A stretch of 35,451 nt of DNA, taken from IMG/VR virus record IMGVR_UViG_2695420367_000003, positions 1-35,451 of that record. One strand, written 5' to 3'. The DNA comes from a virus (lineage: Duplodnaviria; Heunggongvirae; Uroviricota; Caudoviricetes). The translations under genes and the position numbers were made by a program. The notes under the pieces are model-generated. The model ran no database searches. It was not told where the DNA came from and saw only the letters and a program-made list of their open reading frames with translations. This document shows positions 9,659 to 29,308 of the stretch, piece by piece; position 1 is the stretch's first letter, and every line of letters begins with the position of its first letter.

Positions 9659-9964
9659 ATGCACGAAAAAGAGAGCCTTGCCGGAGCGTTCTGGCTCGTT
9701 TTGCTGATCATCGCAGGTTGGGGCGGTCTGGTCCGCTACCTGATAGATGTGAAGCAGAGTAAAGCAACGTGGAGTTGGATAAATGCTCTGGCACAAATAG
9801 TTGTATCAGGATTCACCGGTGTTATTGGTGGCCTGATTAGTATTGAAAGTGGCTTCAGCATTTACATGATTCTCGCGACGGCGGGGATTAGCGGTGCGAT
9901 GGGTTCGGTTGCACTGACGTACTTTTGGGAACGACTGACAGGGGTGAAAAATGCAAAATCTTAA
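9659..9964 (+). CDS. Putative holin (three predicted transmembrane segments)
   Basis: Small hydrophobic protein immediately upstream of and overlapping endolysin R; first ATG at 9659 (the track start at 9647 is a TTG); not the lambda S sequence. Confidence 0.6.
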   Translation: MHEKESLAGAFWLVLLIIAGWGGLVRYLIDVKQSKATWSWINALAQIVVSGFTGVIGGLISIESGFSIYMILATAGISGAMGSVALTYFWERLTGVKNAKS

Positions 9965-10427
9965 TCCTCAGCGTAAAGCTTTCCTCGATATGGTGGCATG
10001 GTCAGAAGGAACGGATAACGGACGGCAGAAAACCAGAAATCATGGTTATGACGTCATTGTAGGCGGAGAGCTATTTACTGATTACTCCGATCACCCTCGC
10101 AAACTTGTCACGCTAAACCCAAAACTCAAATCAACAGCCGCCGGACGTTACCAGCTTCTTTCCCGTTGGTGGGATGCCTACCGTAAGCAGCTTGGCCTGA
10201 AAGACTTCTCTCCAAAAAGCCAGGACGCTGTGGCATTGCAGCAGATTAAGGAGCGTGGCGCTTTACCGATGATTGATCGCGGTGATATTCGTCAGGCTAT
10301 CGACCGTTGCAGCAATATCTGGGCTTCACTGCCGGGCGCTGGTTATGGCCAGTTCGAGCATAAGGCTGACAGCCTGATTGCAAAATTCAAAGAGGCTGGC
10401 GGAACGGTCAGAGAGATTGAGGTATGA
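9951..10427 (+). CDS. R: Endolysin R (lambda-type lytic transglycosylase)
   Basis: Matches lambda gpR almost throughout (…[64 protein letters not shown]…). Confidence 0.93.
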
Positions 10428-10867
10428 GCAGAGTCACCGCGATTATCTCCGCTCTGATTATCTGCATCATCGTCTGCCTGTCATGGGCTGTTAATCATTA
10501 CCGTGATAACGCCATCGCCTACAAAGAGCAGCGCGATAAAGCCACATCCATCATCGCTGACATGCAGAAGCGTCAACGTGATGTAGCAGAACTCGACGCC
10601 AGATACACAAAGGAGCTTGCTGATGCTAACGCGACTATCGAAAGTCTCCGTGCTGATGTTTCTGCTGGGCGTAAGTGGCTGCGCGTCAAAGCTGTCTGTC
10701 CAGACATGCATAAAATCACCGCCGCCTCCGGCGTGGATGATGGCACCAGCCCCAGACTTACTGACACCGCTCAACGGGATTATTTCACCCTTAGAAAGCG
10801 GATTGAAACCAGTGATAAAATGATCCGAGGCTTGCAGCAATACATTCGCACGCAGTGTGTAAGATGA
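10424..10867 (+). CDS. Rz: Spanin inner-membrane subunit Rz
   Basis: N-terminus [34 protein letters not shown] matches lambda Rz; overlaps the R stop. Confidence 0.9.
10623..10823 (+). CDS. Rz1: Spanin outer-membrane lipoprotein Rz1, embedded in the +1 frame of Rz
   Basis: AAGGAG 7 nt upstream of the ATG; lipoprotein signal (…LLGVSGC) and proline-rich [24 protein letters not shown] as in lambda Rz1. Confidence 0.85.
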
Positions 10868-11247
10868 GCAATCTTTGCTAATTAGCCATGAAATAGATAA
10901 ATATCAGGCCAACGATGATTAGTGCCAGGCATCCTAATTGGTCAGAATGGCTGGCATTTGATCGTCTTGCTCTTCTTGCAGTTGACTGGACAGCCCTCTG
11001 TCCTCGACTTCCTCTTGGCATTCCTCTCATTTATTCTCTCTCAACATTGATATTGAACTGACAGATGATAATTATTTCATGAAAGTGGTATCTCGTTGAT
11101 TTGATTACGCTACATAGTCGCCGGATTTTCGCATTTATCGGCATCGGGCGGTGCAAAATTGGCATAATCGAAACGTAGAGTTTTTGGCTGACAACAGCAT
11201 TAGCGGTCACCCGGAGAGTGTTGTGAACATGTTAATTACATGACGCT

Positions 11248-11568
11248 TTAGATGCATCGACATTTGATGATGCTTGTCAGACCTGTCATTTTCTTTGCTT
11301 CATTTTCAACATTGAGGAAGTTGGTTGAGCATATTTTTTGATAATCTCCAGTTGTGAATCCTGTTTTATCGATCTTACGTTTCAAGGGATTAATCGTTTT
11401 GCAAGATGCTCTATGGATTCTGGTAAAGCGTTCGTCAGATTTATTACCTTTACCTCTGGTTCGCTTCAATGCATTGACAACATATCCGTCTGGATTATCG
11501 CCAAGCCAATTACGATAGTCTGATTCACTCTCAGTCTGAAGGTCACTTCTGAATACCTTTATGGACAT
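11248..11568 (-). CDS. Hypothetical protein where lambda carries bor (possibly the DLP12 ybcV/DUF1398 family)
   Basis: Minus-strand ORF with AGGAG RBS before MSIKVFRSDLQTESESDYRNWLGDNPDGYVVNALKR...; family assignment tentative, from memory. Confidence 0.5.
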   Translation of the reverse strand: MSIKVFRSDLQTESESDYRNWLGDNPDGYVVNALKRTRGKGNKSDERFTRIHRASCKTINPLKRKIDKTGFTTGDYQKICSTNFLNVENEAKKMTGLTSIIKCRCI

Positions 11569-11699
11569 GAAGATACTCCTGTGCATTTATGGTACGAAGA
11601 AATAGCAAAAGGATTTTTACCGTAAATTGCGAATCTACAAAAGCAAAACAATGCGTAATATCAGAGTGAATATTCTGCCTTTAATGTGGGTCCTTCTGA

Positions 11700-11900
11700 T
11701 GACCTGAGCTCTCACGGGGCGGAAGGCGCGCGGGTTTTCGCTATTTATGAAAATTTTCCGGTTTAAGGCGTTTCCGTTCTTCTTCGCCGTAACTTAATGT
11801 TTTTATTTAAAACCCCCCCTGAAAAGAAAGGAAACGACAGATGCTGAAAACGGGCTTTTTGGCCTTTGTCGTTTCCTTTCTCTGTTTTTGTCCGTGGAAT
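11700..11900 (+). promoter_or_regulatory. cos: Helper cos site (cosN-like 12-mer at about 11717-11728, plus cosB with R sites and IHF site) upstream of Nu1
   Basis: …GGGCGGAAGGCG CGCGGGTTTTCGCTATTTATGAAAATTTTCCGGTTTAAGGCGTTTCCGTTCTTCTTCG… is nearly identical to the lambda cos region as I recall it, except within the 12-mer. Confidence 0.8.
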
Positions 11901-11905
11901 GAACA

Positions 11906-12425
11906 ATGGAAGTCAACAAAAAGCAGCTGGCTGATATTTTCGGTGCGAGTATCCGTACCATTCAGAACTGGCAGGAGCAGGGAATGCCCGTTCTGCGAGG
12001 CGGTGGCAAGGGTAATGAGGTGCTTTATGATTCTGCCGCCGTCATAAAATGGTATGCCGAAAGGGATGCTGAAATTGAGAACGAAAAGCTGCGCCGGGAA
12101 GTTGAAGAACTGCGGCAGGCCAGCGAGGCAGATCTCCAGCCAGGGACTATTGAGTACGAACGCCATCGACTTACGCGTGCGCAGGCCGACGCACAGGAGC
12201 TGAAGAATGCCAGAGACTCCGCTGAAGTGGTGGAAACCGCATTCTGTACTTTCGTGCTGTCGCGGATCGCAGGTGAAATTGCCAGTATTCTCGACGGGAT
12301 CCCCCTGTCGGTGCAGCGGCGTTTTCCGGAACTGGAAAACCGACATATTGATTTCCTGAAACGGGATATCATCAAAGCCATGAACAAAGCAGCCGCACTG
12401 GATGAACTGATACCGGGGTTGCTGA

Positions 12426-12451
<26 letters not shown>
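11906..12451 (+). CDS. Nu1: Terminase small subunit Nu1
   Basis: MEVNKKQLADIFGASIRTIQNWQEQGMPV… matches lambda gpNu1. Confidence 0.95.
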
Positions 12452-16132
<3,681 letters not shown>

Positions 16133-16152
<20 letters not shown>

Positions 16153-17452
16153 TCTCCCGCATATTGCCAGTATGGCCTTTAATGAGCCGCTGATGCTTGA
16201 ACCCGCCTATGCGCGGGTTTTCTTTTGTGCGCTTGCAGGCCAGCTTGGGATCAGCCGCCTGACGGATGCGGTGTCCGGCGACAGCCTGACTGCCGGAGAG
16301 GCACCCGCGACGCTGGCGTTATCCGGTGATGATGGCGGGCCACGACAGGCCCGCAGTTATCAGGTCATGAACGGCATCGCCGTGCTGCCGGTGTCCGGCA
16401 CGCTGGTCAGCCGGACGCGGGCGCTGCAGCCGTATTCGGGGATGACCGGTTACAACGGCATTATCGCCCGTCTGCAACAGGCTGCCAGCGATCCGATGGT
16501 GGACGGCATTCTGCTCGATATGGACACACCGGGCGGGATGGTGGCGGGAGCATTTGACTGTGCTGACATCATCGCCCGTGTGCGTGACATAAAGCCGGTA
16601 TGGGCGCTGGCCAACGACATGAACTGCAGTGCAGGTCAGCTGCTTGCCAGCGCCGCCTCCCGGCGTCTGGTCACGCAGACCGCCCGGACAGGCTCCATCG
16701 GCGTCATGATGGCTCACAGTAATTACGGTGCTGCGCTGGAGAAACAGGGTGTGGAAATCACGCTGATTTACAGCGGCAGCCATAAGGTGGATGGCAACCC
16801 CTACAGCCATCTACCGGATGATGTCCGGGAAACACTGCAGTCCCGGATGGATGCAACCCGCCGGATGTTTGCACAGAAGGTGTCGGCATATACCGGCCTG
16901 TCCGTGCAGGCTGTGCTGGATACCGAGGCTGCAGTGTACAGCGGTCAGGAGGCCATTGATGCCGGACTGGCTGATGAACTTGTTAACAGTACCGATGCGA
17001 TCACCGTCATGCGTGATGCACTGGATACACGTAAATCCCGTCTCTCAGGAGGGCGAATGACCAAAGAGACTCAATCAACAACTGTTTCAGCCACTGCTTC
17101 GCAGGCTGACGTTACTGGCGTGGTGCAAGCGACGGAGGGCGAGAACGCCAGCGCGGCGCAGCCGGACGTGAACGCGCAGATCACCGCAGCGGTTGCGGCA
17201 GAAAACAGTCGCATTATGGGGATCCTCAACTGTGAGGAGGCTCACGGACGCGAAGAACAGGCACGCGTGCTGGCCGAAACCCCCGGTATGACCGTGGAAA
17301 CGGCCCGCCGCATTCTGGCAGCTGCACCACAGAGTGCACAGGCGCGCAGTGACACTGCGCTGGATCGTCTGATGCAGGGGGCACCGGCACCGCTGGCTGC
17401 AGGTAACCCGGCATCTGATGCCGTTAACGATTTGCTGAACACACCAGTGTAA
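16133..17452 (+). CDS. C: Head protease/scaffold protein C (GTG start)
   Basis: MTAELRNLPHIASMAFNEPLMLEP… matches lambda gpC; 20-nt overlap with B as in lambda; the track ORF start at 16019 is upstream of the true start. Confidence 0.9.
16847..17452 (+). CDS. Nu3: Scaffolding protein Nu3 (internal in-frame start within C)
   Basis: In-frame ATG (MDATRR…) 714 nt downstream of the C start, the same offset as lambda Nu3 relative to C. Confidence 0.7.
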   Translation: MDATRRMFAQKVSAYTGLSVQAVLDTEAAVYSGQEAIDAGLADELVNSTDAITVMRDALDTRKSRLSGGRMTKETQSTTVSATASQADVTGVVQATEGENASAAQPDVNAQITAAVAAENSRIMGILNCEEAHGREEQARVLAETPGMTVETARRILAAAPQSAQARSDTALDRLMQGAPAPLAAGNPASDAVNDLLNTPV

Positions 17453-17461
17453 GGGATGTTT

Positions 17462-17794
17462 ATGACGAGCAAAGAAACCTTTACCCATTACCAGCCGCTG
17501 GGCAACAGTGACCCGGCACATACGGCAACCGCGCCCGGCGGATTGAGTGCGAAAGCGCCTGCAATGACCCCGCTGATGCTGGATACCTCCACCCGTAAGC
17601 TGGTTGCGTGGGATGGCACCACCGACGGTGCTGCCGTTGGCATTCTGGCGGTTGATGCTGACCAGACCAGCACCACGCTGACGTTCTACAAGTCCGGCTC
17701 GTTCCGTTATGAGGATGTGCTCTGGCCGGAGGCTGCCAGCGACGAGACGAAAAAACGGACCGCGTTTGCCGGAACGGCAATCAGCATCGTTTAA
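17462..17794 (+). CDS. D: Head decoration protein D
   Basis: [40 protein letters not shown]… matches lambda gpD; AAGGGA RBS. Confidence 0.95.
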
Positions 17795-17849
17795 CCTTAC
17801 CCTTCATCACTAAAGGCCGCCTGTGCGGCTTTTTTTACGGGATTTTTTT

Positions 17850-18125
17850 ATGTCGATGTACACAACCGCCCAGCTGCTGGCGGCAAATGAGCAGAAATTT
17901 AAGTTTGATCCGCTGTTTCTGCGTCTCTTTTTCCGTGAGAGCTATCCCTTCACCACGGAGAAAGTCTATCTCTCACAAATTCCGGGACTGGTAAACATGG
18001 CGCTGTACGTTTCGCCGATTGTTTCCGGTGAGGTTATCCGCTCCCGTGGCGGCTCCACCTCTGAATTTACGCCGGGATATGTCAAACCCAAGCACTTAGC
18101 ATGGCTTTCTGAGGCTTTCGTGTAG
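17850..18125 (+). pseudogene. E: Major capsid protein E, 5' portion only (codons 1 to about 82), interrupted by the satellite insertion
   Basis: MSMYTTAQLLAANEQKFKFDPLFLRLFF…SEFTPGYVKPKH matches the lambda gpE N-terminus, then diverges into 9 unrelated codons and a stop at the insertion junction. Confidence 0.9.
18085..18094. repeat. Left junction core (attL-like) AACCCAAGCA
   Basis: Identical 10-mer at 28518-28527; joining the flanks restores …GTCAAACCCAAGCATGAAGTG… (VKPKHEV of E). Confidence 0.75.
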
Positions 18126-18257
18126 TTGCTGGTTTTTACACTTAATCTTTTGATAATAAAGAATAAGTTTATCTGGCGCTTTCACTGGATTTTCCTCGTT
18201 ATCTGTGTGTTGCAATCATCTCTGTATTGCAGCTTGTATTGCTTTTTGGGGCTAAAA

Positions 18258-19493
18258 ATGGCTGGCGAGAACAAACTGAGCGACAAAGCACTTAAAGGAT
18301 ATCTGGGGAAACCCAGAGAAAAGCAGATCACCATTGCTGATGGAAAGGGGCTTTCTATTCGTGTGAGTACCAAGGGGGCTGTGAGCTTTGTTTTCTTCTA
18401 CAGGTTAGCAGGTGGCCGGGCTGCTCCGGTCTGGCTAACGTTGGGTAAATATCCTGATATGTCACTCAAACAGGCAAGGGAAAAGCGCGACGAGTGCCGT
18501 GGTTGGTTGGCTGACAAACGTGATCCGCGTATCCAGATTAAGATTCAGGCTGAAGAACGCTTAAAGCCGGTCACAGTGGAGGATGCACTAAATTACTGGT
18601 ATGAAAATTACTGTAAGGTGCGTCGTAAAACTCATGCTGTAACGCTTGGCAGATTTCGAAAGCATATCTTTCCCTATATCGGTCATTTGCCCGTAAATGA
18701 CACTCACCTATATGAATGGCTGGACTGTTTTGACCGAATTAAACGTAATGCACCAGTTATGGCGGCGTATGTTTTTTCTGACACTAAATTAGCTCTTCGT
18801 TTTTGTCGGGTACGCCAGTACGCGACGTGTGATGCTTTAAAGGATTTGCGCATGAGTGATGTGGGGCAGATTGCAGGTAAGCGGGATCGGGTTCTGGATG
18901 AAGCCGAACTGGGCCAGCTCTGGAAGGCAATTTTTGTCGAGCCTGATTTAAAACTAATGTCTGAATACACGCGAAAAATGTTTGTGCTTTGTACAGTATT
19001 TGGATGTCGAATGAGTGAAGCCCGATTATCAGAATGGAGCGAATGGGATCTCGAAAGTTGGGTTTGGACTGTACCAAAAGATCACTCAAAAACTGGTGTT
19101 GAAATCGTCAGACCAGTACCTGAAATTCTACGACAGTGGGTAACGGATGTTCACGAAGAGACAAAACATACTGGTTATGTGCTGGGAAGTCTGCGAATTA
19201 GAGAAAGCGTAAGCAAGATTGGGGGGAAAATCGGTAAACGTTTGGGCCATGAAAAACAATGGTCACTACACGACCTTAGAAGAACGCTTTCAACCCATCT
19301 GAGTGATTTGGGCGTTGAGTTTCATGTAGTGGAGCAGCTGTTAGGCCATGCGCTACCTGGCGTGGCAGGTGTTTACAACCGGAGTAAGTTTATGGCTAAA
19401 AAACTGGATGCTCTGGAACTCTGGACTACATATCTCAATAGCATCGCAGCTGCTGATTCAAAAGTGACAATCCTCAAACAAAAGGCTGGTTAA
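18258..19493 (+). CDS. int: Tyrosine integrase (P4-type, with N-terminal arm-binding domain)
   Basis: N-terminal …LSDKALKGYLGKPREKQITIADGKGLSIRVSTKGAVSFVFFYR…; catalytic-region motifs HDLRRT…LLGH…VYNRS; true ATG at 18258, the track start is upstream. Confidence 0.88.
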   Translation: MAGENKLSDKALKGYLGKPREKQITIADGKGLSIRVSTKGAVSFVFFYRLAGGRAAPVWLTLGKYPDMSLKQAREKRDECRGWLADKRDPRIQIKIQAEERLKPVTVEDALNYWYENYCKVRRKTHAVTLGRFRKHIFPYIGHLPVNDTHLYEWLDCFDRIKRNAPVMAAYVFSDTKLALRFCRVRQYATCDALKDLRMSDVGQIAGKRDRVLDEAELGQLWKAIFVEPDLKLMSEYTRKMFVLCTVFGCRMSEARLSEWSEWDLESWVWTVPKDHSKTGVEIVRPVPEILRQWVTDVHEETKHTGYVLGSLRIRESVSKIGGKIGKRLGHEKQWSLHDLRRTLSTHLSDLGVEFHVVEQLLGHALPGVAGVYNRSKFMAKKLDALELWTTYLNSIAAADSKVTILKQKAG

Positions 19494-19494
19494 C

Positions 19495-19728
19495 ATGAAA
19501 AAAATGGCAATTGTCGATAAAAAGGGTCTGGAGTACATTCCTAACATTGACCGTATGATCCGCGAAAAAGAATGCCGTGAGTTAACTACTCTTGCTAATA
19601 GCACTCGATGGAAGTTAGAGAAAGAAGGAAAGTTTCCAAAGCGTATTAAAATAGGTGCCACTGCCGTAGCATATCGCCTTTCGGAGGTGCAGGCGTGGAT
19701 TCGTGGGGAATGGTACTTAAATAAGTAA
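19495..19728 (+). CDS. alpA: AlpA-family HTH regulator/excisionase-like protein
   Basis: …ECRELTTLANSTRWKLEKEGKFPKRIKIGATAVAYRLSEVQAWI… fits the AlpA pattern; directly follows int. Confidence 0.8.
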   Translation: MKKMAIVDKKGLEYIPNIDRMIREKECRELTTLANSTRWKLEKEGKFPKRIKIGATAVAYRLSEVQAWIRGEWYLNK

Positions 19729-19736
19729 ATCATTTC

Positions 19737-19765
19737 AATTAGGTAGGTTTATTACCTACCTAATT
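19737..19765. terminator. Perfect palindrome AATTAGGTAGGT-TTATT-ACCTACCTAATT between convergent genes (bidirectional terminator candidate)
   Basis: Seen directly: 12-bp perfect inverted repeat with a 5-nt loop, between the alpA stop and the stop of the minus-strand 241-aa gene. Confidence 0.6.
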
Positions 19766-19768
19766 AAT

Positions 19769-20494
19769 TTAAATCATGTCTGCCTTATTTCCTAATTTTA
19801 TGGAGCAATCCTCTAAAAGATGCCCGATGAACTTATGAGTTCCAATAACATAATCTTGAAGCCTATATTCCATTCCTAATAATGACTTGTTCTCTTTGTC
19901 CTTGAAAAAAGGAAAAGAGGCAAGGTTTTCATCGACAATATAAAGGTGTTTGATTTTGTTGTTTAAAACCCTAGTTTCGTTAATGACATCGTAAGAATCA
20001 AGTTGGGAGAGGTCAATACCATAACTTAAGTATTTCTTTTTTAATTTATCCCATGTATATGGAACTTTAACTTGACTTTCAGGTATTTCTTTAATAATTG
20101 CTTCTAGCAAAGAGTATGCCATGGTACTAAACTGTTCAATAATAGCCCAAAGATTAATTACGACACTGTCATTGGCAAAAAATGAGGCTTTTCTATTAAG
20201 ATCATCATAATAACCAACCATCTCTCTATGTCTGGCTTGAGAAATCAAGGCCATTTCATGCACTTCATCGTCTAATAAGTCTGGATTATATTGGGGAGTG
20301 TTGTCTGCAATTTTTTGTATCTCCTTAAGATTTATGTTATATGTATGATAAACAAATGAGTGAAATACTATTAGATCTTCAAGTCGGAACGAAAATTTCC
20401 CAAGTAGAGACAGGAATCTACTATCATGAGGGAAATAATGTGGGATAGGATTGTCTGTTAAATTATATTCACTTATTCGTTTTAGATTTTGCAT
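19769..20494 (-). CDS. Hypothetical 241-aa protein, AT-rich cargo (function unknown)
   Basis: Long ORF, visibly AT-rich versus surrounding genes, co-oriented and 24 nt downstream of the RHH gene; no motif I recognise. Confidence 0.6.
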   Translation of the reverse strand: MQNLKRISEYNLTDNPIPHYFPHDSRFLSLLGKFSFRLEDLIVFHSFVYHTYNINLKEIQKIADNTPQYNPDLLDDEVHEMALISQARHREMVGYYDDLNRKASFFANDSVVINLWAIIEQFSTMAYSLLEAIIKEIPESQVKVPYTWDKLKKKYLSYGIDLSQLDSYDVINETRVLNNKIKHLYIVDENLASFPFFKDKENKSLLGMEYRLQDYVIGTHKFIGHLLEDCSIKLGNKADMI

Positions 20495-20518
20495 CTCTCA
20501 CAGATCCTTTTAAAAGTC

Positions 20519-20713
20519 TTAACCTCTAGGTTCAATACCTTGTTTGCGTAGTTCTGCTCTTGCTAGTTCTTTAAGCCAATTAGCCAAACTCATTCCTTCT
20601 TTTGCAGCCGCACTAACCATTTGTTCTTTTAGTTCCGGGTGGATACGGATCTGAAATGCCGGTGCCTTACCAGCACCTTTCGGCTGTTTATCGCGCTGAA
20701 TGATAGTTGACAT
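20519..20713 (-). CDS. Ribbon-helix-helix (CopG/Arc-like) DNA-binding protein; candidate repressor or antitoxin
   Basis: 64 aa; …FQIRIHPELKEQMVSAAAKEGMSLANWLKELARAEL… is typical of RHH proteins; first gene of a leftward operon diverging from the replication module. Confidence 0.65.
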   Translation of the reverse strand: MSTIIQRDKQPKGAGKAPAFQIRIHPELKEQMVSAAAKEGMSLANWLKELARAELRKQGIEPRG

Positions 20714-20716
20714 GTA

Positions 20717-20817
20717 TGTACCTATTGCTTAGTATGCTTCTTGATAGGTACACACCTTATCATGTTTTATTACTCTGTAACAACGCCCTGCAGTGCTCGC
20801 AACACATACAGGGCGTT
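20717..20817. promoter_or_regulatory. Divergent control region with two 9-bp inverted repeats, each with an 18-bp spacer
   Basis: TGTACCTAT…ATAGGTACA (20717-20752) and AACGCCCTG…CAGGGCGTT (20782-20817), between the divergent RHH gene and the 20853 ORF. Confidence 0.5.
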
Positions 20818-20852
20818 TAACCACCAACGATAGCAACAGTATCGAGGTAGCT

Positions 20853-21056
20853 ATGAGAAATCATACCACACACCCGCAAGGGCGGGACCCGCACAACCTG
20901 AATAAATACATCTGGCGTTTTATCGCCCTGAGTACGGCACAACCGCGCGTGATTACCATCGAGGCCACCAGCGAACAGGAAGCCCGCCAGCAATCCCCAA
21001 CTGGCTGCGTGATGATATTCGCCGCCCGTATTCGTCAGGAGGTGTGCCATGAATGA
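20853..21056 (+). CDS. Hypothetical small protein (67 aa)
   Basis: GAGGTAG RBS before the ATG; first gene of the rightward operon leading to the primase. Confidence 0.5.
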   Translation: MRNHTTHPQGRDPHNLNKYIWRFIALSTAQPRVITIEATSEQEARQQSPTGCVMIFAARIRQEVCHE

Positions 21057-21273
21057 TCTTTATTTGAAAGTGCTGACACATGCTGAAAACGCGCTCGTTT
21101 GTGGCAAAAATATGCGAGAAATCTTATCAACCTGGCTTGATGGGACAACAAATGCGGAACACGATGAACGGGATGCTAATTTAGCTGGAGCGTTAATTAC
21201 GTTACTTGATCCTGTCATCAAAGAGCTGGATGAAGCTATAAAAATACACGACCAGAGCTATACCGGAGAATAA
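21049..21273 (+). CDS. Hypothetical small protein (74 aa)
   Basis: AGGAGGTG RBS; start overlaps the upstream ORF stop. Confidence 0.5.
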   Translation: MNDLYLKVLTHAENALVCGKNMREILSTWLDGTTNAEHDERDANLAGALITLLDPVIKELDEAIKIHDQSYTGE

Positions 21274-21276
21274 AAA

Positions 21277-21564
21277 ATGAAAAATAAATTTTCTGGCTTT
21301 ATTGCCAGCGGTCAAACTCATTCAAAAATCAGCCTTGGGGATATTTTCAAAGACAGCTATGGCTATCGGGTAAAGATTATTTCGGTTGATGATCGTCGTG
21401 TCTCTTATTTGCGTGATGGTTATGATTTTGAATGTGTTATGCCGCGTCAGCAGTTCGAAAGAGATTTCATTCTGGTAAAAAATTGCAAGACAGATAATCA
21501 GAGGCGTGCCGCAGGCTATATCCGTAAAATTCGGGCAATGTTAGTTGCCGGAGGTAACAAATGA
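21277..21564 (+). CDS. Hypothetical small protein (95 aa)
   Basis: GGAGAA RBS; stop overlaps the primase start. Confidence 0.5.
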   Translation: MKNKFSGFIASGQTHSKISLGDIFKDSYGYRVKIISVDDRRVSYLRDGYDFECVMPRQQFERDFILVKNCKTDNQRRAAGYIRKIRAMLVAGGNK

Positions 21565-23381
21565 AACGTGCTCCGAACTTAAAATACCAACCGCGCGACA
21601 AAATGACGGAAGTCATCATTTTTGCTGGCAGTGATGCCTGGAGCCATGCAAAAGAATGGAATGAATGGGCAGGTAAGCATATTGCAGCAGATGATACACC
21701 ACCAGTCATTCTGGGTACAGAACAACTGGAAAACCTGGATGATATGCAAATTATCGATGAAGGCCGTCATTATGTGCGTGTTTATCGTGCTGGAAAGATT
21801 GCAGAGAAAAGTCTGACGAAGGTTGCGACATTACTTGCTATTGCAGGCGTAAAGGAAGCACGTTGTTACCGTAGCTTTGTTGATCGAGAGCCTGAAGACT
21901 GGACTCCGCGCCTTGTCGGCCTAAAAGCTGAAGCGGAGCATGGGGAAAGTCTGGTGATTGAACTGCCAGTGAAGAAGGCAGAGCGCAAAAATGACGAGCG
22001 TGCTTCATCTTTGGCGTTGAATCAGATGGGGGCCAGCCAGCGCGGTGAAGTTCTCCTTGCACATTACGGCGGCGAACTGGCAATCAATGCCGACTCTGAC
22101 ACCGTTCATCATTACAACGGCGTTGTATGGGAGCCGGTTCAGGATAAAGAGTTACAGCGTGCTATGGCGCAGATTTTCATTGATGCGGAGATCAGCTATT
22201 CGCAGAACGCTATTAAATCGGCGGTAGATACCATGAAGTTAAGTTTGCCTGTAATGGGGAATACAGCCCGTAACCTGATTGGATTCAGTAACGGGGTATT
22301 TGATACCAGAACTGGTAATTTTCGGGAGCATAACAAAAACGACTGGTTGTTAATTGCCAGTGAATTACCTTTCAGCCCACCAGCAGAGGGGGAAACGCTG
22401 GCAACACATGCGCCGAATTTCTGGAAGTGGTTGCGCCGTTCGGTGGCTGAGAATGACCGCAAGGCAGATCGCGTACTGGCGGCATTATTCATGGTGCTGG
22501 CGAACCGGTACGACTGGCAGTTATTCATTGAGGTAACAGGGCCGGGGGGAAGTGGTAAAAGTGTGATGGCGGAGATTTGCACCATGCTGGCGGGTAAGGC
22601 GAATACAGTATCAGCAAGCATGAAGGCGCTGGAAGATGCAAGGGAACGTGCGTTAGTGGTTGGCTTTTCGCTGATTATCATGCCGGATATGACCCGCTAC
22701 GCTGGTGATGGGGCAGGGATTAAGGCCATTACAGGCGGTGACAAGGTGGCAATTGACCCGAAACACAAAGCCCCCTATTCAACGCGTATTCCGGCAGTAG
22801 TGCTGGCGGTTAACAATAACGCCATGTCATTCAGTGACCGCAGCGGGGGGATCTCACGTCGTCGGGTGATATTCAATTTTTCGGAAGTTGTACCGGAGAA
22901 CGAACGCGATTCGATGCTGGCGGAAAAAATAGAAGGTGAGCTGGCGGTAGTGATTCGTCATCTGCTTACACGGTTTGCTGATCAGGACGAAGCCAGACGC
23001 CTGTTATATGAGCAGCAGAAATCTGAAGAAGCACTGGCGATAAAGCGAGAGGGGGATTCGCTGGTGGACTTCTGCGGCTATCTCATGGCATCGGTAATGT
23101 GTGATGGCCTGTTAGTGGGTAATGCTGAAATTGTGCCATTCAGCCCACGCAGGTATCTCTATCATGCCTATCTGGCTTATATGAGGGCACATGGGTTTGG
23201 TAAACCTGTAACACTGACGCGCTTCGGTAAAGATATGCCGGGGGCAATGGCGGAATATGGCAGGGAGTATATGAAACGGAAAACGAAGCACGGTTTGCGT
23301 TCAAACGTGACACTGACGGAGGAATCAGAAGACTGGATGCCATCATGTGTATCGGTCACTAATGACGATAGCAAAAATTAA
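21561..23381 (+). CDS. Phage/plasmid primase-helicase (P4-alpha-like domain with SF3 helicase Walker A GPGGSGKS)
   Basis: 606 aa; Walker A and downstream helicase-like motifs; immediately followed by the iteron array. Confidence 0.85.
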   Translation: MKRAPNLKYQPRDKMTEVIIFAGSDAWSHAKEWNEWAGKHIAADDTPPVILGTEQLENLDDMQIIDEGRHYVRVYRAGKIAEKSLTKVATLLAIAGVKEARCYRSFVDREPEDWTPRLVGLKAEAEHGESLVIELPVKKAERKNDERASSLALNQMGASQRGEVLLAHYGGELAINADSDTVHHYNGVVWEPVQDKELQRAMAQIFIDAEISYSQNAIKSAVDTMKLSLPVMGNTARNLIGFSNGVFDTRTGNFREHNKNDWLLIASELPFSPPAEGETLATHAPNFWKWLRRSVAENDRKADRVLAALFMVLANRYDWQLFIEVTGPGGSGKSVMAEICTMLAGKANTVSASMKALEDARERALVVGFSLIIMPDMTRYAGDGAGIKAITGGDKVAIDPKHKAPYSTRIPAVVLAVNNNAMSFSDRSGGISRRRVIFNFSEVVPENERDSMLAEKIEGELAVVIRHLLTRFADQDEARRLLYEQQKSEEALAIKREGDSLVDFCGYLMASVMCDGLLVGNAEIVPFSPRRYLYHAYLAYMRAHGFGKPVTLTRFGKDMPGAMAEYGREYMKRKTKHGLRSNVTLTEESEDWMPSCVSVTNDDSKN

Positions 23382-23394
23382 ACTTATGGAATAA

Positions 23395-23620
23395 CTGTTC
23401 ACCACTGTTCACCCTGTCATAAATATCTTTTATATCAGTATATTATAGGGTGAACAGTTATTTATGAACTGTTCACCAAACTATTCACTGTTCACCTTTT
23501 TGATTGTTTATTGAGCTTCAAGGGTGAACAGTGGTGAACAGTTGGTGAATAGTTTTTGTGAAACTGTTCACCCATTAACATTATGAATTAAAAGAGAAAA
23601 TATCAAAAGGTGAACAGGTG
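23395..23620. repeat. Satellite replication origin: at least 10 copies of the iteron GGTGAACAG/CTGTTCACC in both orientations
   Basis: Seen directly: the motif recurs at about 23396, 23406, 23449, 23469, 23489, 23524, 23534, 23545 (variant), 23565 and 23610 within an AT-rich stretch downstream of the primase. Confidence 0.8.
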
Positions 23621-23668
23621 AAGGGTTAAAACGCAAAAATTTTAATTTACTGCTGTGAGATAAAGCCT

Positions 23669-23914
23669 ATGACAGCGAAGCACACAAAAAAATCACAATC
23701 GCACGCCCTTGATTTGACGGAACACTGGTTAAGGGTGTCGATAAAAATCATCGACCGCAACGCCGGGGAAGGATACGCGAAAGCACATCCCGAACTGATT
23801 AGCGCATTCATGACAACGGCGGCTGCAAACTTTGCCACTCTGACCGAACGGGAGATTGCTGAAGCGGAGGAAGTGACAACAATCAATATTAAGTCCGGAG
23901 AGCAGGCAGCATGA
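23669..23914 (+). CDS. Hypothetical protein (81 aa)
   Basis: ORF overlapping the SSB-like gene start; no recognisable motif. Confidence 0.45.
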   Translation: MTAKHTKKSQSHALDLTEHWLRVSIKIIDRNAGEGYAKAHPELISAFMTTAAANFATLTEREIAEAEEVTTINIKSGEQAA

Positions 23915-24360
23915 TGGCGCAAATATCAGTTTACGGGCGGTTGGTGGACGACCCGCAGACAAAACAGACCAGCAAGGGCACCCCCATGACGCTGGCGCGT
24001 ATGGCGGTATCAATGCCCTGCAGTCAGTCGGATGACGGTCAGGCGACGATGTGGTTATCTGTCCTGGCGTTTGGCAGACAAGCCGACGCACTGGCAAAGC
24101 ATCACAAAGGCGAACTCCTGAGCGTGGCGGGTAACATGCAGATGAGCCAGTGGACTGGACAGAACGGCGAAACGCGGCAGGGCTGGCAGGTTATCGCAGA
24201 CAGCGTAATCAGTGCGCGATCGGTGCGACCGGGCGGCAAAAAAGGCCAACAGGGGCAGGCTACTGACGAACTGAACAGAGCAAAACAACAGGCAGATCAG
24301 CAAGGAAGCCAGCCACCAGTGGGAGATAATGAGCAATGGGGAGATGATATCCCGTTTTAA
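23911..24360 (+). CDS. SSB-like single-stranded DNA-binding protein with C-terminal acidic DDIPF tail
   Basis: OB-fold-like N-terminal region parallels E. coli SSB; Gly/Gln-rich linker; C-terminal …EQWGDDIPF. Confidence 0.7.
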   Translation: MMAQISVYGRLVDDPQTKQTSKGTPMTLARMAVSMPCSQSDDGQATMWLSVLAFGRQADALAKHHKGELLSVAGNMQMSQWTGQNGETRQGWQVIADSVISARSVRPGGKKGQQGQATDELNRAKQQADQQGSQPPVGDNEQWGDDIPF

Positions 24361-24375
24361 ATATTGCCAATAAAA

Positions 24376-24401
24376 AAGGCCGGAAAAAATAAATTTTCCG
24401 G
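24376..24401. terminator. Hairpin GCCGGAAAA-AATAAA-TTTTCCGGC downstream of the SSB-like gene
   Basis: Perfect inverted repeat with A-rich and T-rich arms; a possible terminator or attenuator before the capsid genes. Confidence 0.4.
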
Positions 24402-24576
24402 CATGCTACATAAATCCCGACCAAAGGGAGTGAAGATATTAACACTAATTGTCCGCACTGAAGTTGTCACCCCAAAACTTTATACAACATTGCACTCGGT
24501 TGCATGTGTTCGCATGACAAATATCGGTGGTAGCATATATCCACAATTATTTTTAATGAATGCAAAGAGGATGCGT

Positions 24577-25617
24577 ATGGTTGATTTATATTCGCCTACT
24601 CAGCTTGTACAGGTGGTTAATGCTGTAGATGTACAAAAACAACTAAATGCGTTGTTTACCAGTTTGTTTTTTACTCGCTCGGTAATGTTTGAATCGCGCG
24701 ATATTATTCTTGATACAATCGACGATCCAAATATCCCAATTGCAGCGTTTTGTTCTCCTATGGTGGGTAGTAAAGTTTCACGTGACGAAGGGTACGAATC
24801 AAAAACAATTCGTCCAGGCTATATGAAGCCGAAAAGCAGCATTGATCCAAATAAGTTAGCTGTGCGCCCTGCTGGTGTATCACCTGAGCAATACAATGCT
24901 TTTGGGGCACGTAATATTAAAGTTAAACAGGCGATTGTAAATCAAGCTAAAGCTATTCGTGCACGTATTGAATGGCTTGCTGTTCAGGCAATCACAACGG
25001 GGAAAAATATCATTGAGGGCGATGGTATTGAACGTTATGAGCTGGACTGGAATATTAAACCACAAAATATCATCACTCAGTCTGGCGGTGCTGAGTGGTC
25101 AGGTAAGGATAAAGAAACTTTTGATCCAAATGATGATATTGAGAGCTACGCAGAATTTAGTGAGGGCGTCACTAATATTATCATTATGGGCGGTAATGTA
25201 TGGAAGAAATACCGTTCATTCAGAGCGATAAAAGAGGCTCTGGATACCCGTCGTGGTTCTAATTCCGAACTGGAAACGGCCCTTAAAGACCTTGGTGATT
25301 CGGTGAGTTTTAAAGGGTATATGGGCGATGTTGCGATTGTTGTATACAGCGGGCGTTATACCGACGAGGACGGAACTGAAAAACATTTCCTTGATCCTGA
25401 TTTGATGGTGCTTGGCAATACGGCTCTTCAGGGGATTGTCGCCTATGGCGGTATTCAGGATCCGGAGCTAATCCGAATGGGGCTGACTAAAGCCGAACTT
25501 GCACCGAAAAACTATATTGTGCCTGGTGATCCGGCTATTGAATATGTGCAGACACATTCAGCACCACAGCCAATACCGGCCCGCATCAATCGTTTTGTTA
25601 CCGTTCGCATTGGCTAA
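24577..25617 (+). CDS. Satellite-encoded major capsid protein, diverged homolog of lambda gpE
   Basis: C-terminal 180 aa align to lambda E (…SGGAEWSGKDKETFDPNDDIESYA…LDTRRGSNSELETALKDLG…GDVAIVVYSG…); N-terminal half diverged but collinear (RPGYMKPKS vs TPGYVKPKH); GAGG RBS 6 nt before the ATG at 24577. Confidence 0.85.
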   Translation: MVDLYSPTQLVQVVNAVDVQKQLNALFTSLFFTRSVMFESRDIILDTIDDPNIPIAAFCSPMVGSKVSRDEGYESKTIRPGYMKPKSSIDPNKLAVRPAGVSPEQYNAFGARNIKVKQAIVNQAKAIRARIEWLAVQAITTGKNIIEGDGIERYELDWNIKPQNIITQSGGAEWSGKDKETFDPNDDIESYAEFSEGVTNIIIMGGNVWKKYRSFRAIKEALDTRRGSNSELETALKDLGDSVSFKGYMGDVAIVVYSGRYTDEDGTEKHFLDPDLMVLGNTALQGIVAYGGIQDPELIRMGLTKAELAPKNYIVPGDPAIEYVQTHSAPQPIPARINRFVTVRIG

Positions 25618-25626
25618 GGGGGAGCA

Positions 25627-25968
25627 ATGGCTACTCATTACACTGAACTCATGGCTGGCACTGAAGCACTGGTGACTACACTGGGGATATTTTCAGCTAA
25701 TAAAGGGGTAATTCATGCATTTACGCCACTGATGCAGGAAGATGCAACAGGTGCACTGGTGGTATGGGATGGTTCGAGCGTAGGTAAAGCGGTTTATGTT
25801 TCCGCTGTACAAATCGACACCGCGAAAAAAACACAGGCTCAGGTCTATAAGACAGGTGTCTTAAATGTTGATGCTCTGAACTGGCCTGAGTCTGTTAAAG
25901 AACTGTCAGTAAAGGTTGCAGCGTTTGTTGGCTCAGGTATTTCTGTTCAGCCGCTGGCTCGTGTGTAA
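25627..25968 (+). CDS. Satellite-encoded head decoration protein, diverged homolog of lambda gpD
   Basis: 113 aa; shares the spaced pattern TPLM…WDG…G…Q.YK.G…WPE…AF.G..ISV with lambda D (copy at 17462-17794). Confidence 0.65.
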   Translation: MATHYTELMAGTEALVTTLGIFSANKGVIHAFTPLMQEDATGALVVWDGSSVGKAVYVSAVQIDTAKKTQAQVYKTGVLNVDALNWPESVKELSVKVAAFVGSGISVQPLARV

Positions 25969-25979
25969 AGGGGGATACA

Positions 25980-26363
25980 ATGCAGAATGATTACAATGAC
26001 CTTAAGCCAATTGCCGAAATGATGTACCCGAATCAAGCTGTAGAGGAATTAAAAGCTATCGCTGACAAAATGTGTTTAAGCGAGCGCCTTGTTGATATGA
26101 ATCAGGTGATGGAAATTACAACCCTGAGTCGTCGTACACTGCTAAACCTTGAGGCTAGTGGAGAGTTCCCGGAGCGTGTGCAGGTTACGGAAGGGCGTAA
26201 GGCCTGGTATTTAAGTGAAGTGATCGACTGGATAAATAATATTCCTCGCGCTTCTGAATATTGCCGCGTACCTGTCCCAAAAAAGCCAGATGCGGCGCTA
26301 TGCCTCAAGATTGAGCGTGTACGCCGCAATGCACGGGATGGTCGCTATAAGCTGATTGGTTGA
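25980..26363 (+). CDS. HTH DNA-binding protein (AlpA/MerR-like motif) adjacent to satellite cos
   Basis: …MEITTLSRRTLLNLEASGEFPERVQVTEGRKAWYLSEVIDWI… helix-turn-helix; last gene before cos. Confidence 0.6.
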   Translation: MQNDYNDLKPIAEMMYPNQAVEELKAIADKMCLSERLVDMNQVMEITTLSRRTLLNLEASGEFPERVQVTEGRKAWYLSEVIDWINNIPRASEYCRVPVPKKPDAALCLKIERVRRNARDGRYKLIG

Positions 26364-26413
26364 TGAAGTTAGGGCCCGCTCTGGCTGGCGGGTCCTTTCC
26401 GGCGATCCAGAAC

Positions 26414-26600
26414 GTTACGGGGCGTCAGGCGCGCAGATTCTTGCTATTTATGACAATTTTCTGCGATTTGCCGTTTCCGTTCTTCTTCCTCGTAACTTAG
26501 TGTTTTTACTAGAAATACCCTCTTAAAAGAAAGGAAATGACAGGTGCTGAAAACAGGCTTTTGGGTCTCCGTCATTTCCTTTCTCATTTTTATCTAAAAG
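26414..26600 (+). promoter_or_regulatory. cos: Satellite cos site (cosN-like 12-mer at about 26420-26431 plus cosB-like R and IHF elements), no terminase gene attached
   Basis: About 190 bp closely similar to the helper cos region (…CGTTTCCGTTCTTCTTC…AAAAGAAAGGAAA.GACAG.TGCTGAAAAC.GGCTTTT…TTTCCTTTCTC…); not followed by Nu1. Confidence 0.8.
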
Positions 26601-26815
26601 TAAGCATCGAGGCCACCCCAAATGCTTATAGAGGTTATTGTGTCACTATGCGTACTGTTCAGGATTTAAAGTAGCAAGACATCTAGTTGCTTGCAGTTTT
26701 GGCGAATGATGTGAGGTTCTCTATAACAGATAATGTAACAAGTTACTGATATATTCTGTTATGGTTGACTTTAAATTCTGTTGCTCCTTCAATGAATTAT
26801 TGAGGGGTGAAAATT

Positions 26816-26841
26816 AGGCGTGATAAGAATCGATCACGCCT
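26816..26841. terminator. Hairpin AGGCGTGAT-AAGAATCG-ATCACGCCT just beyond the 3' end of the minus-strand cargo gene
   Basis: Perfect 9-bp stem; T-rich on the plus side and A-rich on the minus side. Confidence 0.5.
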
Positions 26842-26846
26842 ATTGT

Positions 26847-28163
26847 TTATCTTGAAGAAATTTTAGGCAGGCTTTTTAAAAATAAATCTTTATTTCTACT
26901 TGCATCAGTTAAAAGTGTTAGGAATATTTTATCTGTAGGAGTGCATGTGCTCTTGTTTAACAGTAATTCACCAAGTTTCTGTAATCGAGAGAATTGCCCA
27001 TCCTCTTGGATTCTGTGACGAAGTGTACTATCATTTTTAATAACATCAACAAATGCAGAAACCATGTTAATATCAAAGTATTCAAACATTTCCAATATTA
27101 AAGGTGCAGCCCCATTTGAATAAAAATTCTTCCTTCCATACTGATAGCTGAAACCACGATGGCCAACATAAGTTTTTGTAATGGCTGAAACAAATTCAAC
27201 AATATTATCTTCAGGGACGAAACTCGAGAATGGTAATAATTGGGTTACGATTTTTTCCTCTTCTGACCAATTATCTAAAGACTCGGTGAGTTTATTAATG
27301 AGAGGCTCAATAATAACTTTTCGGGATGCAGGGCTAATATACATCAGTCCATCTACCAATAGTATGAATTGTTGTGCCTTCTCTATCTTATTGTTGTTTC
27401 CTGAAACTAAATACTTGTCAAATTGTTGGCCGACTTTACGTCGGTCGTCTTTTGAAAGTAATGTCCATAAAATAGGTGCGCAAAATTCAATGTTGTTTCT
27501 GAGTTCACTTGATATATTGGATGAGCAGTATGTGCCAAAAAAACGAGAGGATAATTCACTGATATAAATTGCAGGTAGATCTGAAAAGGCTTGCTTAACT
27601 GCCAGACTATTTTTATTAAATGTTGCCGAATCCATTTCTGAAAGATATGTAGATATATCTATGATGGCTGGTGGAAACTCTTTAGAAAGAACGTATTTAT
27701 TACAATCATTAATCAGGTTCACTACTTTGATTAAATCAGGGTCGCTACTTTGTGGATGTCCACCAAATAGATTCCTGGTTTCTCTAGCTTGTTGTAATAG
27801 TTTCTGACCTTCTCGATCGATAACTCCTATTTTAAATGCTCCATCTATTAAATCAAAGTCGCTCACATAATCCTGAAAATCTTCATACGTTTTAATTTCT
27901 TTTTTTTGTTTACACTCTTTGTTGAATAGATCTAGGCTACGATGAATTATCTTTTGACGTAAATCATCAACTACAGCATTCCAGTAAGCAGTGATGGCAC
28001 TTCTATAACCTTTTACAGGAAGAACTCTTATTGCTTCTGAAATATATGGGCAGTCAACTACATCATGCCTCACAGTTGAGAGCGCAGTTTGTAACAATGT
28101 AACTTCTGTAGAGTCTAGTGGAGTTGGCTGCACTAAATGAGAACTTATCTCTGTACCCTTCAT
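26847..28163 (-). CDS. Hypothetical 438-aa protein, AT-rich cargo (function unknown; candidate accessory or defence gene)
   Basis: Long uninterrupted ORF, visibly AT-rich, between satellite cos and the right junction; no motif I recognise. Confidence 0.6.
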   Translation of the reverse strand: MKGTEISSHLVQPTPLDSTEVTLLQTALSTVRHDVVDCPYISEAIRVLPVKGYRSAITAYWNAVVDDLRQKIIHRSLDLFNKECKQKKEIKTYEDFQDYVSDFDLIDGAFKIGVIDREGQKLLQQARETRNLFGGHPQSSDPDLIKVVNLINDCNKYVLSKEFPPAIIDISTYLSEMDSATFNKNSLAVKQAFSDLPAIYISELSSRFFGTYCSSNISSELRNNIEFCAPILWTLLSKDDRRKVGQQFDKYLVSGNNNKIEKAQQFILLVDGLMYISPASRKVIIEPLINKLTESLDNWSEEEKIVTQLLPFSSFVPEDNIVEFVSAITKTYVGHRGFSYQYGRKNFYSNGAAPLILEMFEYFDINMVSAFVDVIKNDSTLRHRIQEDGQFSRLQKLGELLLNKSTCTPTDKIFLTLLTDASRNKDLFLKSLPKISSR

Positions 28164-28517
28164 TTCAGGATTTTCCTATTCTTTTCCATTTTTCTACTCT
28201 ATTGAATTTGAAAAAGATATCAAGTTCGTTCTTGCCAGTTTTAAGTGGAAAAATTGATGTTACCTTATTGAGATAAGGCAGTTCTCTATAACCTATTGTT
28301 ATTAATTATTTTTATTTTTTTTCCAATTCAGATGTTTAGGGCTAAGAAGTTAAGTGAGAGTTCACAGCAAAACTGCTTCTAGTTCCTCACCGAGGAGCAA
28401 AAGGTTAAGACAGCGTACTTTGTATTGCACAATGTATTGCAGAACCTTCTTTCGAAAGCTACAACAATCAATTTTATATTGAAAATTCAATCATATCCTT
28501 TCGATATTGACTCATAT

Positions 28518-28527
28518 AACCCAAGCA
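28518..28527. repeat. Right junction core (attR-like) AACCCAAGCA
   Basis: Identical to 18085-18094; the downstream sequence continues in the E reading frame. Confidence 0.75.
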
Positions 28528-29308
28528 TGAAGTGAATCCGCAGATGACCCTGCGTCGCCTGCCGGATGAAGATCCGCAGAATCTGGCGGACCCGGCTTAC
28601 CGTCGCCGTCGCATCATCATGCAGAACATGCGTGACGAAGAGCTGGCCATTGCCCAGGTGGAAGAGATGCAGGCAGTTTCTGCCGTGCTTAAGGGCAAAT
28701 ACACCATGACCGGTGAAGCCTTCGATCCGGTTGAGGTGGATATGGGTCGCAGTGCGGCGAATAACATCACGCAGTCCGGCGGCACGGAGTGGAGTAAGCG
28801 TGATAAGTCCACGTATGACCCGACCGACGATATCGAAGCCTACGCGCTGAACGCCAGCGGTGTGGTGAATATCATCGTGTTTGATCCGAAAGGCTGGGCG
28901 CTGTTCCGTTCCTTCAAAGCCGTCAGGGAGAAGCTGGATACCCGTCGCGGCTCTCATTCCGAACTGGAGACAGCGGTAAAAGACCTGGGCAAAGCGGTGT
29001 CTTATAAGGGAATGTATGGCGATGTGGCCATCGTCGTGTATTCCGGACAGTACGTGGAAAATGGTGTCAAAAAGAACTTCCTGCCGGACAACACGATGGT
29101 GCTGGGCAACACTCAGGCACGCGGTCTGCGCACCTATGGCTGCATTCAGGATGCGGACGCACAGCGCGAAGGCATTAACGCCTCTGCCCGTTACCCGAAA
29201 AACTGGGTGACCACCGGCGATCCGGCGCGTGAGTTCACCATGATTCAGTCAGCACCGCTGATGCTGCTGGCTGACCCTGATGAGTTCGTGTCCGTACAAC
29301 TGGCGTAA
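28520..29308 (+). pseudogene. E: Major capsid protein E, 3' portion (codons about 80 to 341), separated from its 5' portion by the satellite
   Basis: …KHEVNPQMTLRRLPDEDPQNLADPAYRRRRIIMQNMRDEELAIAQ… to the C-terminus …DPDEFVSVQLA matches lambda gpE; no own start codon or RBS. Confidence 0.9.

Follow-up and report, generated by a model that had tools for sequence, protein, structure and literature searches.

A lambda-type capsid gene divided by a 10.4-kb insert

The DNA analysed here, called the window throughout, is a 35,451-nt stretch of a virus of the Caudoviricetes (IMG/VR record IMGVR_UViG_2695420367_000003, positions 1–35,451). It holds part of a lambda-like prophage, the helper, and, inside the helper's major capsid gene E, an integrated 10.4-kb satellite. 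The lambda-type E gene begins with an ATG at 17850, reads MSMYTTAQLL...GYVKPKH, is interrupted after base 18094 and resumes at 28528. The two gene fragments and the repeats that form the left and right attachment (att) sites are arranged as follows:

17850–18094 (+), 5′ fragment of helper E, codons 1–81 and 2 nt of His82 (from the reading frame and alignment to gpE)
18085–18094 (+), attL identity block, AACCCAAGCA (repeat search)
28518–28527 (+), attR identity block, AACCCAAGCA (repeat search)
28528–29308 (+), 3′ fragment of helper E, which finishes His82 and runs from EVNPQ... to the stop codon (frame and alignment)

The break lies inside His codon 82, with base 28528 supplying the T that completes CAT. 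An earlier note on this DNA had described E as interrupted by an insert of about 10.4 kb between identical 10-bp repeats; the repeat coordinates and the collinearity of the two halves are confirmed. The left break falls after 18094 (about 18095 in that note), and the right-hand resumption is placed at 28528 rather than 28520. The repeat has no further copy on either strand of the window, where a given 10-mer is expected by chance about 0.03 times per strand (35451/4^10). Fusion of 17850–18094 to 28528–29308 gives 1,026 nt with an open frame of 341 aa. A full-length match of the fused halves to lambda E had been proposed as a check, and the restored protein does align without gaps with the lambda major capsid protein of known structure (7VI9), residues 1–341 on 1–341, with 337/341 identities (E 5e-227); the differences from lambda gpE are at residues 158, 159, 215 and 225. 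An exact in-frame break of this kind, with a direct repeat on either side, did not arise by chance. The window directly shows the anatomy of the insert, the att sites and an E gene that can be restored.

Beyond 18094 the E frame enters nine unrelated codons (LAWLSEAFV) and reaches a stop at 18123–18125. The truncated product of the integrated state is thus 91 aa long (81 native residues followed by HLAWLSEAFV; window 17850–18125, + strand), and late transcription with the satellite integrated should yield this fragment of E.

Gene content of the insert

The insert was annotated by Pfam, PHROGs and NCBIfam scans of 15 open reading frames (ORFs), to which the presence and absence statements below refer. 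Its int, alpA, pri, ssb and capsid genes are all on the + strand, co-oriented with helper genes Nu1 through H. The integrase, replication and late genes are:

18258–19493 (+), tyrosine integrase with Arm-DNA-bind_3 and Phage_integrase domains (Pfam)
19495–19728 (+), AlpA, putative excisionase/activator (family match)
20793–21056 (+), Icd-like protein, phage_ICD_like (family match)
21049–21273 (+), conserved hypothetical protein, phrog_2196 (PHROGs)
21277–21564 (+), DUF4222 protein (family match)
21561–23381 (+), primase-helicase with D5_N, DUF5906, Pox_D5 and P4-family primase C-terminal domain matches
23669–23914 (+), conserved hypothetical protein, phrog_1231 (PHROGs)
23911–24360 (+), single-stranded DNA-binding protein, SSB (family match)
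24577–25617 (+), satellite major capsid protein, Phage_cap_E (family match), 42% identical to helper E
25627–25968 (+), homologue of head-decoration protein D (HDPD), 39% identical to helper D across 77 aligned residues
25980–26363 (+), second AlpA-family winged helix-turn-helix protein, 127 aa, phrog_2790, directly 5′ of a cos-like site (family match)

All core satellite genes (int, alpA, pri, ssb, capsid and D) are open and full length. The contents named in the earlier note (int, alpA, primase, iteron origin, SSB, capsid homologues and cos) are borne out by the agreement of family scans, iterons and cos similarity, with cos now termed cos-like; the hallmarks expected of a satellite at 18.1–28.5 kb, namely int–alpA–pri–ori order, SSB and the cos-like site, are present. 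No gene for lysis, tail, terminase, portal, protease or head–tail connector functions is found among the scanned ORFs, none of which has a Pfam or PHROG match to Psu, Sid or Delta, and the insert contains no repressor–operator module.

In the region equivalent to the att site, the satellite capsid gene carries the diverged sequence GCCGAAAAGCAGC. The nearest structure to its product is PDB 3bqw, a 'putative capsid protein of prophage' (E 2.6e-121, compared with E 2e-76 for lambda gpE), which suggests a separate, satellite-borne lineage of E-family capsid proteins. The capsid gene of the most similar element found elsewhere, that of strain ET665 (L002 10316–11356), has an internal stop and is annotated as a pseudogene, in keeping with the reported dispensability of capsid genes in phage-inducible chromosomal islands (PICIs).

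Assignment to the helper-embedded PICIs

Helper-embedded PICIs (HE-PICIs) were described by Tommasini, Mageeney & Williams in 2023 in NAR Genomics and Bioinformatics (PMC10111431; preprint July 2022). The founder, Eco567.11capE of E. coli NRG857c (11capE below), lies in E of a lambda-like prophage in late-operon orientation, with a 10-bp identity block and a diverged capsid gene of its own; the census of that study counts 201 instances at site E:Phage_cap_E:80 and 491 over 14 late-gene sites (PMC10111431). From comparison with these elements, 18095–28517 plus one 10-bp core is very probably an HE-PICI of site group E:Phage_cap_E:80 and a close relative of 11capE, with its own integrase, inserted at codon 82 of E in late-operon orientation.

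Several lines of evidence support this assignment. The integrase is identical to that of 11capE at 408/411 residues, which places it in the 11capE clade, and the backbone at 20901–26591 is 98.4% identical to 11capE. A 281-bp attL region is identical at 278/281 positions among the window, NRG857c and ET665, and is identical from the core into the element. NRG857c is itself among the genomes that match the element, and split capsid pseudogenes are annotated in NRG857c, ET665 and EC931. A doubled tgTGTATTGCantgTGTATTGCa motif is reported as unique to HE-PICIs, in which its copies lie 81 ± 2 bp upstream of the attP centre and 132 ± 2 bp downstream of it (PMC10111431). Doubled arm motifs occur here at ~81 and 131.5 bp, in agreement with the published distances:

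18221–18244 (+), doubled TGTATTGC arm motif, sequence tcTGTATTGCagctTGTATTGCtt, starting 131.5 bp downstream of the core centre
28419–28442 (+), doubled TGTATTGC arm motif, sequence ttTGTATTGCacaaTGTATTGCag, ending ~81 bp upstream of the core centre

The published order of zones is also kept, with int–alpA followed by a variable zone (19729–20900), DUF4222–pri–ori–SSB, and capsid–D–AlpA2–cos–cargo. Every feature that defines HE-PICIs and can be examined at the level of sequence is found in the element.

In NRG857c treated with mitomycin C, the whole composite excises and replicates, and at 2 h the satellite has been precisely excised from 42–98% of composites, as assayed by quantitative PCR and by deep sequencing across the junctions (PMC10111431). 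These data, from a near-identical element, support the proposal in the earlier note that the satellite occupies an essential capsid gene of the helper, travels with the helper and blocks production of intact E until it excises. That note had taken the arrangement to be undescribed, a view superseded by the 2023 publication. It had also compared the element with P4-like satellites and PICIs; the PICI assignment holds and the P4-like one does not, since Psu, Sid and Delta are lacking. With 10.4 kb, int, alpA, a primase gene beside a putative ori and no lysis, tail or terminase family among the 15 scanned ORFs, the element fits the gram-negative PICIs, which measure about 10–20 kb. Its capsid homologues are indeed carried, as homologues of E and D rather than as a full capsid module. 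The observation is real, correctly interpreted and already known; only the combination of cargo is unusual.

As laid out in 2023, HE-PICIs show that an essential gene of another mobile element can serve as an att site, couple production of the helper capsid to satellite excision in a form of cis-regulatory parasitism, and confuse prophage and satellite callers. To the published family the window contributes a further member that is clean, looks intact and differs in its cargo set.

Putative replication origin and cos-like site

Three further features of the element were located by repeat, similarity and promoter scans:

23385–23630 (no strand assigned), putative replication origin, an AT-rich iteron field (GC 0.33) just 3′ of the primase gene (repeat scan)
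26417–26591 (+), cos-like site, a 177-bp stretch with 81% identity to helper 11714–11888, just 5′ of Nu1
20707–20735 (+), candidate promoter TTGACA-17-TAGTAT (promoter scan)

The putative origin contains about 11 GGTGAACAGT iterons in both orientations at 23393–23627. In the cos-like site, the centre of the cosN-like dodecamer is GGGCGTCAGGCG, compared with GGGCGGAAGGCG in the helper. Neither dodecamer equals that of lambda cosN, which we take to be GGGCGGCGACCT; the exact lambda sequence does not occur in the window, and its sole match with up to two mismatches falls within the primase gene. By sequence, the helper is one with a variant cohesive-end sequence.

Some PICIs encode Rpp, which retargets the helper terminase small subunit. 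The 127-aa AlpA-like protein next to the cos-like site was considered as an Rpp analogue. Neither the protein nor its family profile matches Rpp (6HLK and 6HN7) or Nu1 (1J9I) at E ≤ 10, and AlpA (8c3t) is the sole match in the same structure-sequence comparison. The candidate was dropped for lack of a sequence match, the AlphaFold model (pLDDT 53) being too poor for a fold search. The protein may serve in packaging specificity, or act as a second excisionase or a regulator. For the satellite cos-like site, it is simpler to suppose that the helper terminase recognises it directly, because the similarity to the helper cos region extends beyond cosN and an Rpp homologue is undetectable.

Across the window, no Rfam family reached its gathering threshold, and within the element the matches at E ≤ 1 were of chance level only; the C4/isrK immunity RNA was undetectable by Rfam in this satellite copy.

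Occupied and empty sites

The attL junction is present in 173–175 of 5,426 complete E. coli genomes (~3%). As an independent estimate of prevalence, 173/5,426 genomes are occupied, compared with 3,102 that have an intact E site, i.e. at least one empty site. A search of related prophages for uninterrupted E sites had been proposed, and such sites are found both in these 3,102 genomes and in a helper (L003) that is 99.3% identical over window positions 1–18094 and in which the flanks abut with an 8-bp overlap. Among deposited phage genomes, none contains the element or the composite; the sole match is to the primase in a 16.5-kb induced element (16% match, 78% identity).

The positions at which core alleles were compared are:

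Window 18085–18094 and 28518–28527; L003 37084–37094; L004 1598 and 12931

L003 carries two synonymous differences within the 10-bp block, giving AAGCCGAAGCA. This is the commoner core allele of intact E (2,237 genomes, compared with 900 for AAACCCAAGCA), and it is found on the helper side of attL in 68/175 occupied sites. In EC931, attL and attR share AAGCA only. Because recoded occupied sites leave only AAGCA common to attL and attR, the effective crossover probably lies within or beside AAGCA and is shorter than 10 bp, unless helper–helper recombination reshuffles the left flank. The recoded allele is either used for integration or was acquired later through helper–helper recombination. The idea that helpers escape the satellite by recoding the att core was rejected, the recoded allele being occupied in those 68 of 175 sites.

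Alternative explanations

Assignment to the HE-PICIs has to be weighed against several observations that count against a functional element of this kind. The window does not reach the helper int, cI or tail-fibre end. Excision in this strain is represented by the in silico restoration of the 341-aa E, the measurements having been made on 11capE. From NRG857c, no plaques or particles were recovered (PMC10111431), so that for this satellite group packaging and transfer stay hypothetical. The cos-like site is assigned from its 81% similarity only, with a cosN-like centre unlike that of the helper, and no Rpp homologue is detectable in the element. Promoter and terminator scans gave counts equal to those in shuffled sequence and are uninformative on read-through control. 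The NRG857c result in particular would fit a genuine arrangement that is a dead end, in which a decayed satellite in a defective prophage is a fossil insertion that inactivates E and neither excises nor transfers. The ET665 capsid pseudogene would fit it too, and decay is common in these prophages, as seen in L003, where the integrase and tape-measure genes are frameshifted. In the window, however, all core satellite genes remain open at full length, the att cores and arm motifs are intact at both ends, E can be restored without a lesion, and the helper late genes from Nu1 through H are all open. With precise excision of the near-identical 11capE from 42–98% of induced composites also taken into account, we regard a dead end as improbable.

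The shortness of the repeat (10 bp) and the lack of read support for the window could also indicate a chimera, in which assembly joined a chromosomal PICI and a prophage at the 10-mer. This is contradicted by the recurrence of the attL junction in 173–175 independent complete genomes, by the split capsid pseudogenes at both junctions in NRG857c, ET665 and EC931, and by the published study, which sequenced through these junctions; an assembly artefact is effectively refuted, and we give it next to no credence. Nor does the insert appear to be a P4-like satellite, a capsid-forming PICI (cf-PICI) or the remnant of a second prophage instead of a classical gram-negative PICI. The P4-family primase C-terminal domain, AlpA and the P4-type arm-binding domain of the integrase do recall P4, and the element encodes its own capsid and decoration proteins. 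The P4-like class is nonetheless opposed by a helper that is lambdoid rather than P2-like and by the result that 0/15 scanned ORFs match Psu, Sid or Delta; a cf-PICI would bring its own terminase, portal, protease and connector genes, and a prophage remnant its lysis, tail and repressor–operator modules, all of which are absent. Given also a backbone 98% identical to that of a published PICI, membership of another class is very unlikely, and an HE-PICI remains the reading that we adopt below.

Proposed life cycle

While the helper is repressed, the HE-PICI would be carried passively and replicated with it. SOS induction would lead to excision and replication of the whole composite. Transcription from the helper late promoter, with Q antitermination, could then run through Nu1–A–W–B–C–D–E′ into the satellite int and alpA genes, whose products would recombine attL with attR, freeing a 10.4-kb circle and restoring intact E. 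The circle would replicate from the iteron origin with its own primase-helicase and SSB, and the helper terminase may package it via the cos-like site into lambda-type virions built by the helper. In a new cell, the satellite would integrate into E of a resident lambdoid prophage.

For 11capE, the composite's excision and replication followed by delayed, precise excision of the satellite have been shown experimentally, whereas late read-through into int and alpA is a hypothesis of the HE-PICI paper and was not measured (PMC10111431). What we infer, for 11capE and for the present element alike, is the control by read-through, the packaging and transfer, and the part played by the satellite E and D homologues.

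Cargo zones

Two low-GC cargo slots lie on the minus strand:

19769–20494 (−), orphan gene for a 241-aa protein, part of the cargo in the variable 'Bro/dynamic' zone, GC 0.325 (no match to any family)
20519–20713 (−), 64-aa ribbon-helix-helix protein of Arc/HicB-like type, encoded divergently from the rightward genes (family match)
26847–28163 (−), cargo gene of GC 0.35 for a 438-aa protein, with a HEPN fold predicted at the N terminus and a helical domain at the C terminus (structure prediction)

The 241-aa orphan has just 10 related clusters among 5.8 billion proteins, and the neighbouring 64-aa gene is labelled HicB antitoxin by RefSeq in other strains. This left-hand pair is complete in 4/5,426 complete E. 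coli genomes. The Pfam scan revealed no Bro-N domain protein in this copy.

The 438-aa protein belongs to a well-conserved but unannotated family, with 858 relatives at 50–60% identity distributed from Enterobacteriaceae to Xanthomonas and Campylobacterota and an invariant R130-x5-H136 motif. The family carries the precomputed Pfam accession PF27235, unmatched by the local Pfam copy; no model in PADLOC, NCBIfam or that copy matches either the 241-aa or the 438-aa cargo gene. In 11capE, the same terminal slot holds a HEPN + DUF262 pair. The right-hand cargo (26592–28517) is found in 12/5,426 genomes, and both copies inspected are in an HE-PICI at the same E site. The two low-GC minus-strand genes are accessory cargo, most likely with anti-phage or abortive-infection functions. 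Tentatively, the unannotated family, the predicted fold and the terminal slot together raise the possibility that the 438-aa protein is an undescribed single-gene abortive-infection RNase, carried by helper-embedded satellites and swapped among them.

Just 1/5,426 complete genomes covers ≥80% of the element. In the EC931 satellite, the primase gene is 1,752 nt long, compared with 1,821 nt here, and the small genes upstream of it are different. Judged from these comparisons, the element is a new mosaic of known modules, as is routine for PICIs.

Comparison with known satellites

The element resembles 11capE in its integrase (99% identity), E att site, 10-bp block, arm motifs, replication/late backbone (98.4%), orientation and lambda-like helper. 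On alignment it departs from the founder only in the two variable zones: between alpA and icd, the 241-aa orphan and the Arc/HicB-like gene stand in place of the 11capE genes, and where 11capE has the HEPN + DUF262 pair there is the 438-aa HEPN-fold gene alone. The helpers also differ in location, in that the closest relative of the window helper is found at tRNA-Thr near proA and not at icd; the window excludes the helper's own site.

The model gram-negative PICI, EcCICFT073 (Fillol-Salom et al. 2018, 2019; PMC6739421), shares with the element the int–alpA–pri–ori order, a length of ~10 kb, a capsid homologue and lambdoid helpers, and its cos site has a putative counterpart here. It is chromosomal, acts in trans only and lacks a phage-like cosB; its packaging requires the helper terminase small subunit TerS (PMC6739421), which is retargeted by Rpp. 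In the present element, by contrast, 81% similarity to the helper cos region is retained and extends downstream of cosN, and Rpp is undetectable. Like P4, which exploits P2, it is an integrative satellite with a P4-type integrase, a primase-helicase, AlpA-like regulators and, presumably, cos packaging by the helper terminase. Unlike P4, it lacks Sid, Psu and Delta and has a lambdoid helper in which it is inserted, whereas P4 occupies a chromosomal tRNA gene and not its helper. A satellite-borne major capsid protein is shared with the cf-PICIs, but these hold a whole head and packaging module and the present element only homologues of E and D.

Regulated gene integrity, or active lysogeny, is exemplified by the skin element in sigK and by phi10403S in comK, and as in those cases excision here would make a divided gene whole again at a particular stage of development. 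The divided gene is, however, that of another mobile element, the helper, and it is the satellite that the timing benefits, as set out in the discussion of the HE-PICI paper (PMC10111431).

The helper prophage

The helper late genes 5′ of the insertion are all open and co-oriented with the satellite:

11714–17794 (+), cos region, Nu1, A, W, B (portal), C (S49 protease) and D

Between the helper replication gene P and the nin genes lie a 1,302-aa inverse autotransporter of the intimin/invasin type (1811–5719, + strand) and, next to it, an alpha/beta hydrolase gene (5756–6799, − strand). This pair looks like a moron, a block of accessory genes, with a possible function in adhesion. The autotransporter gene contains a tandem internal repeat of 349 bp, whose two copies (3120–3468 and 3477–3825) are 97% identical.

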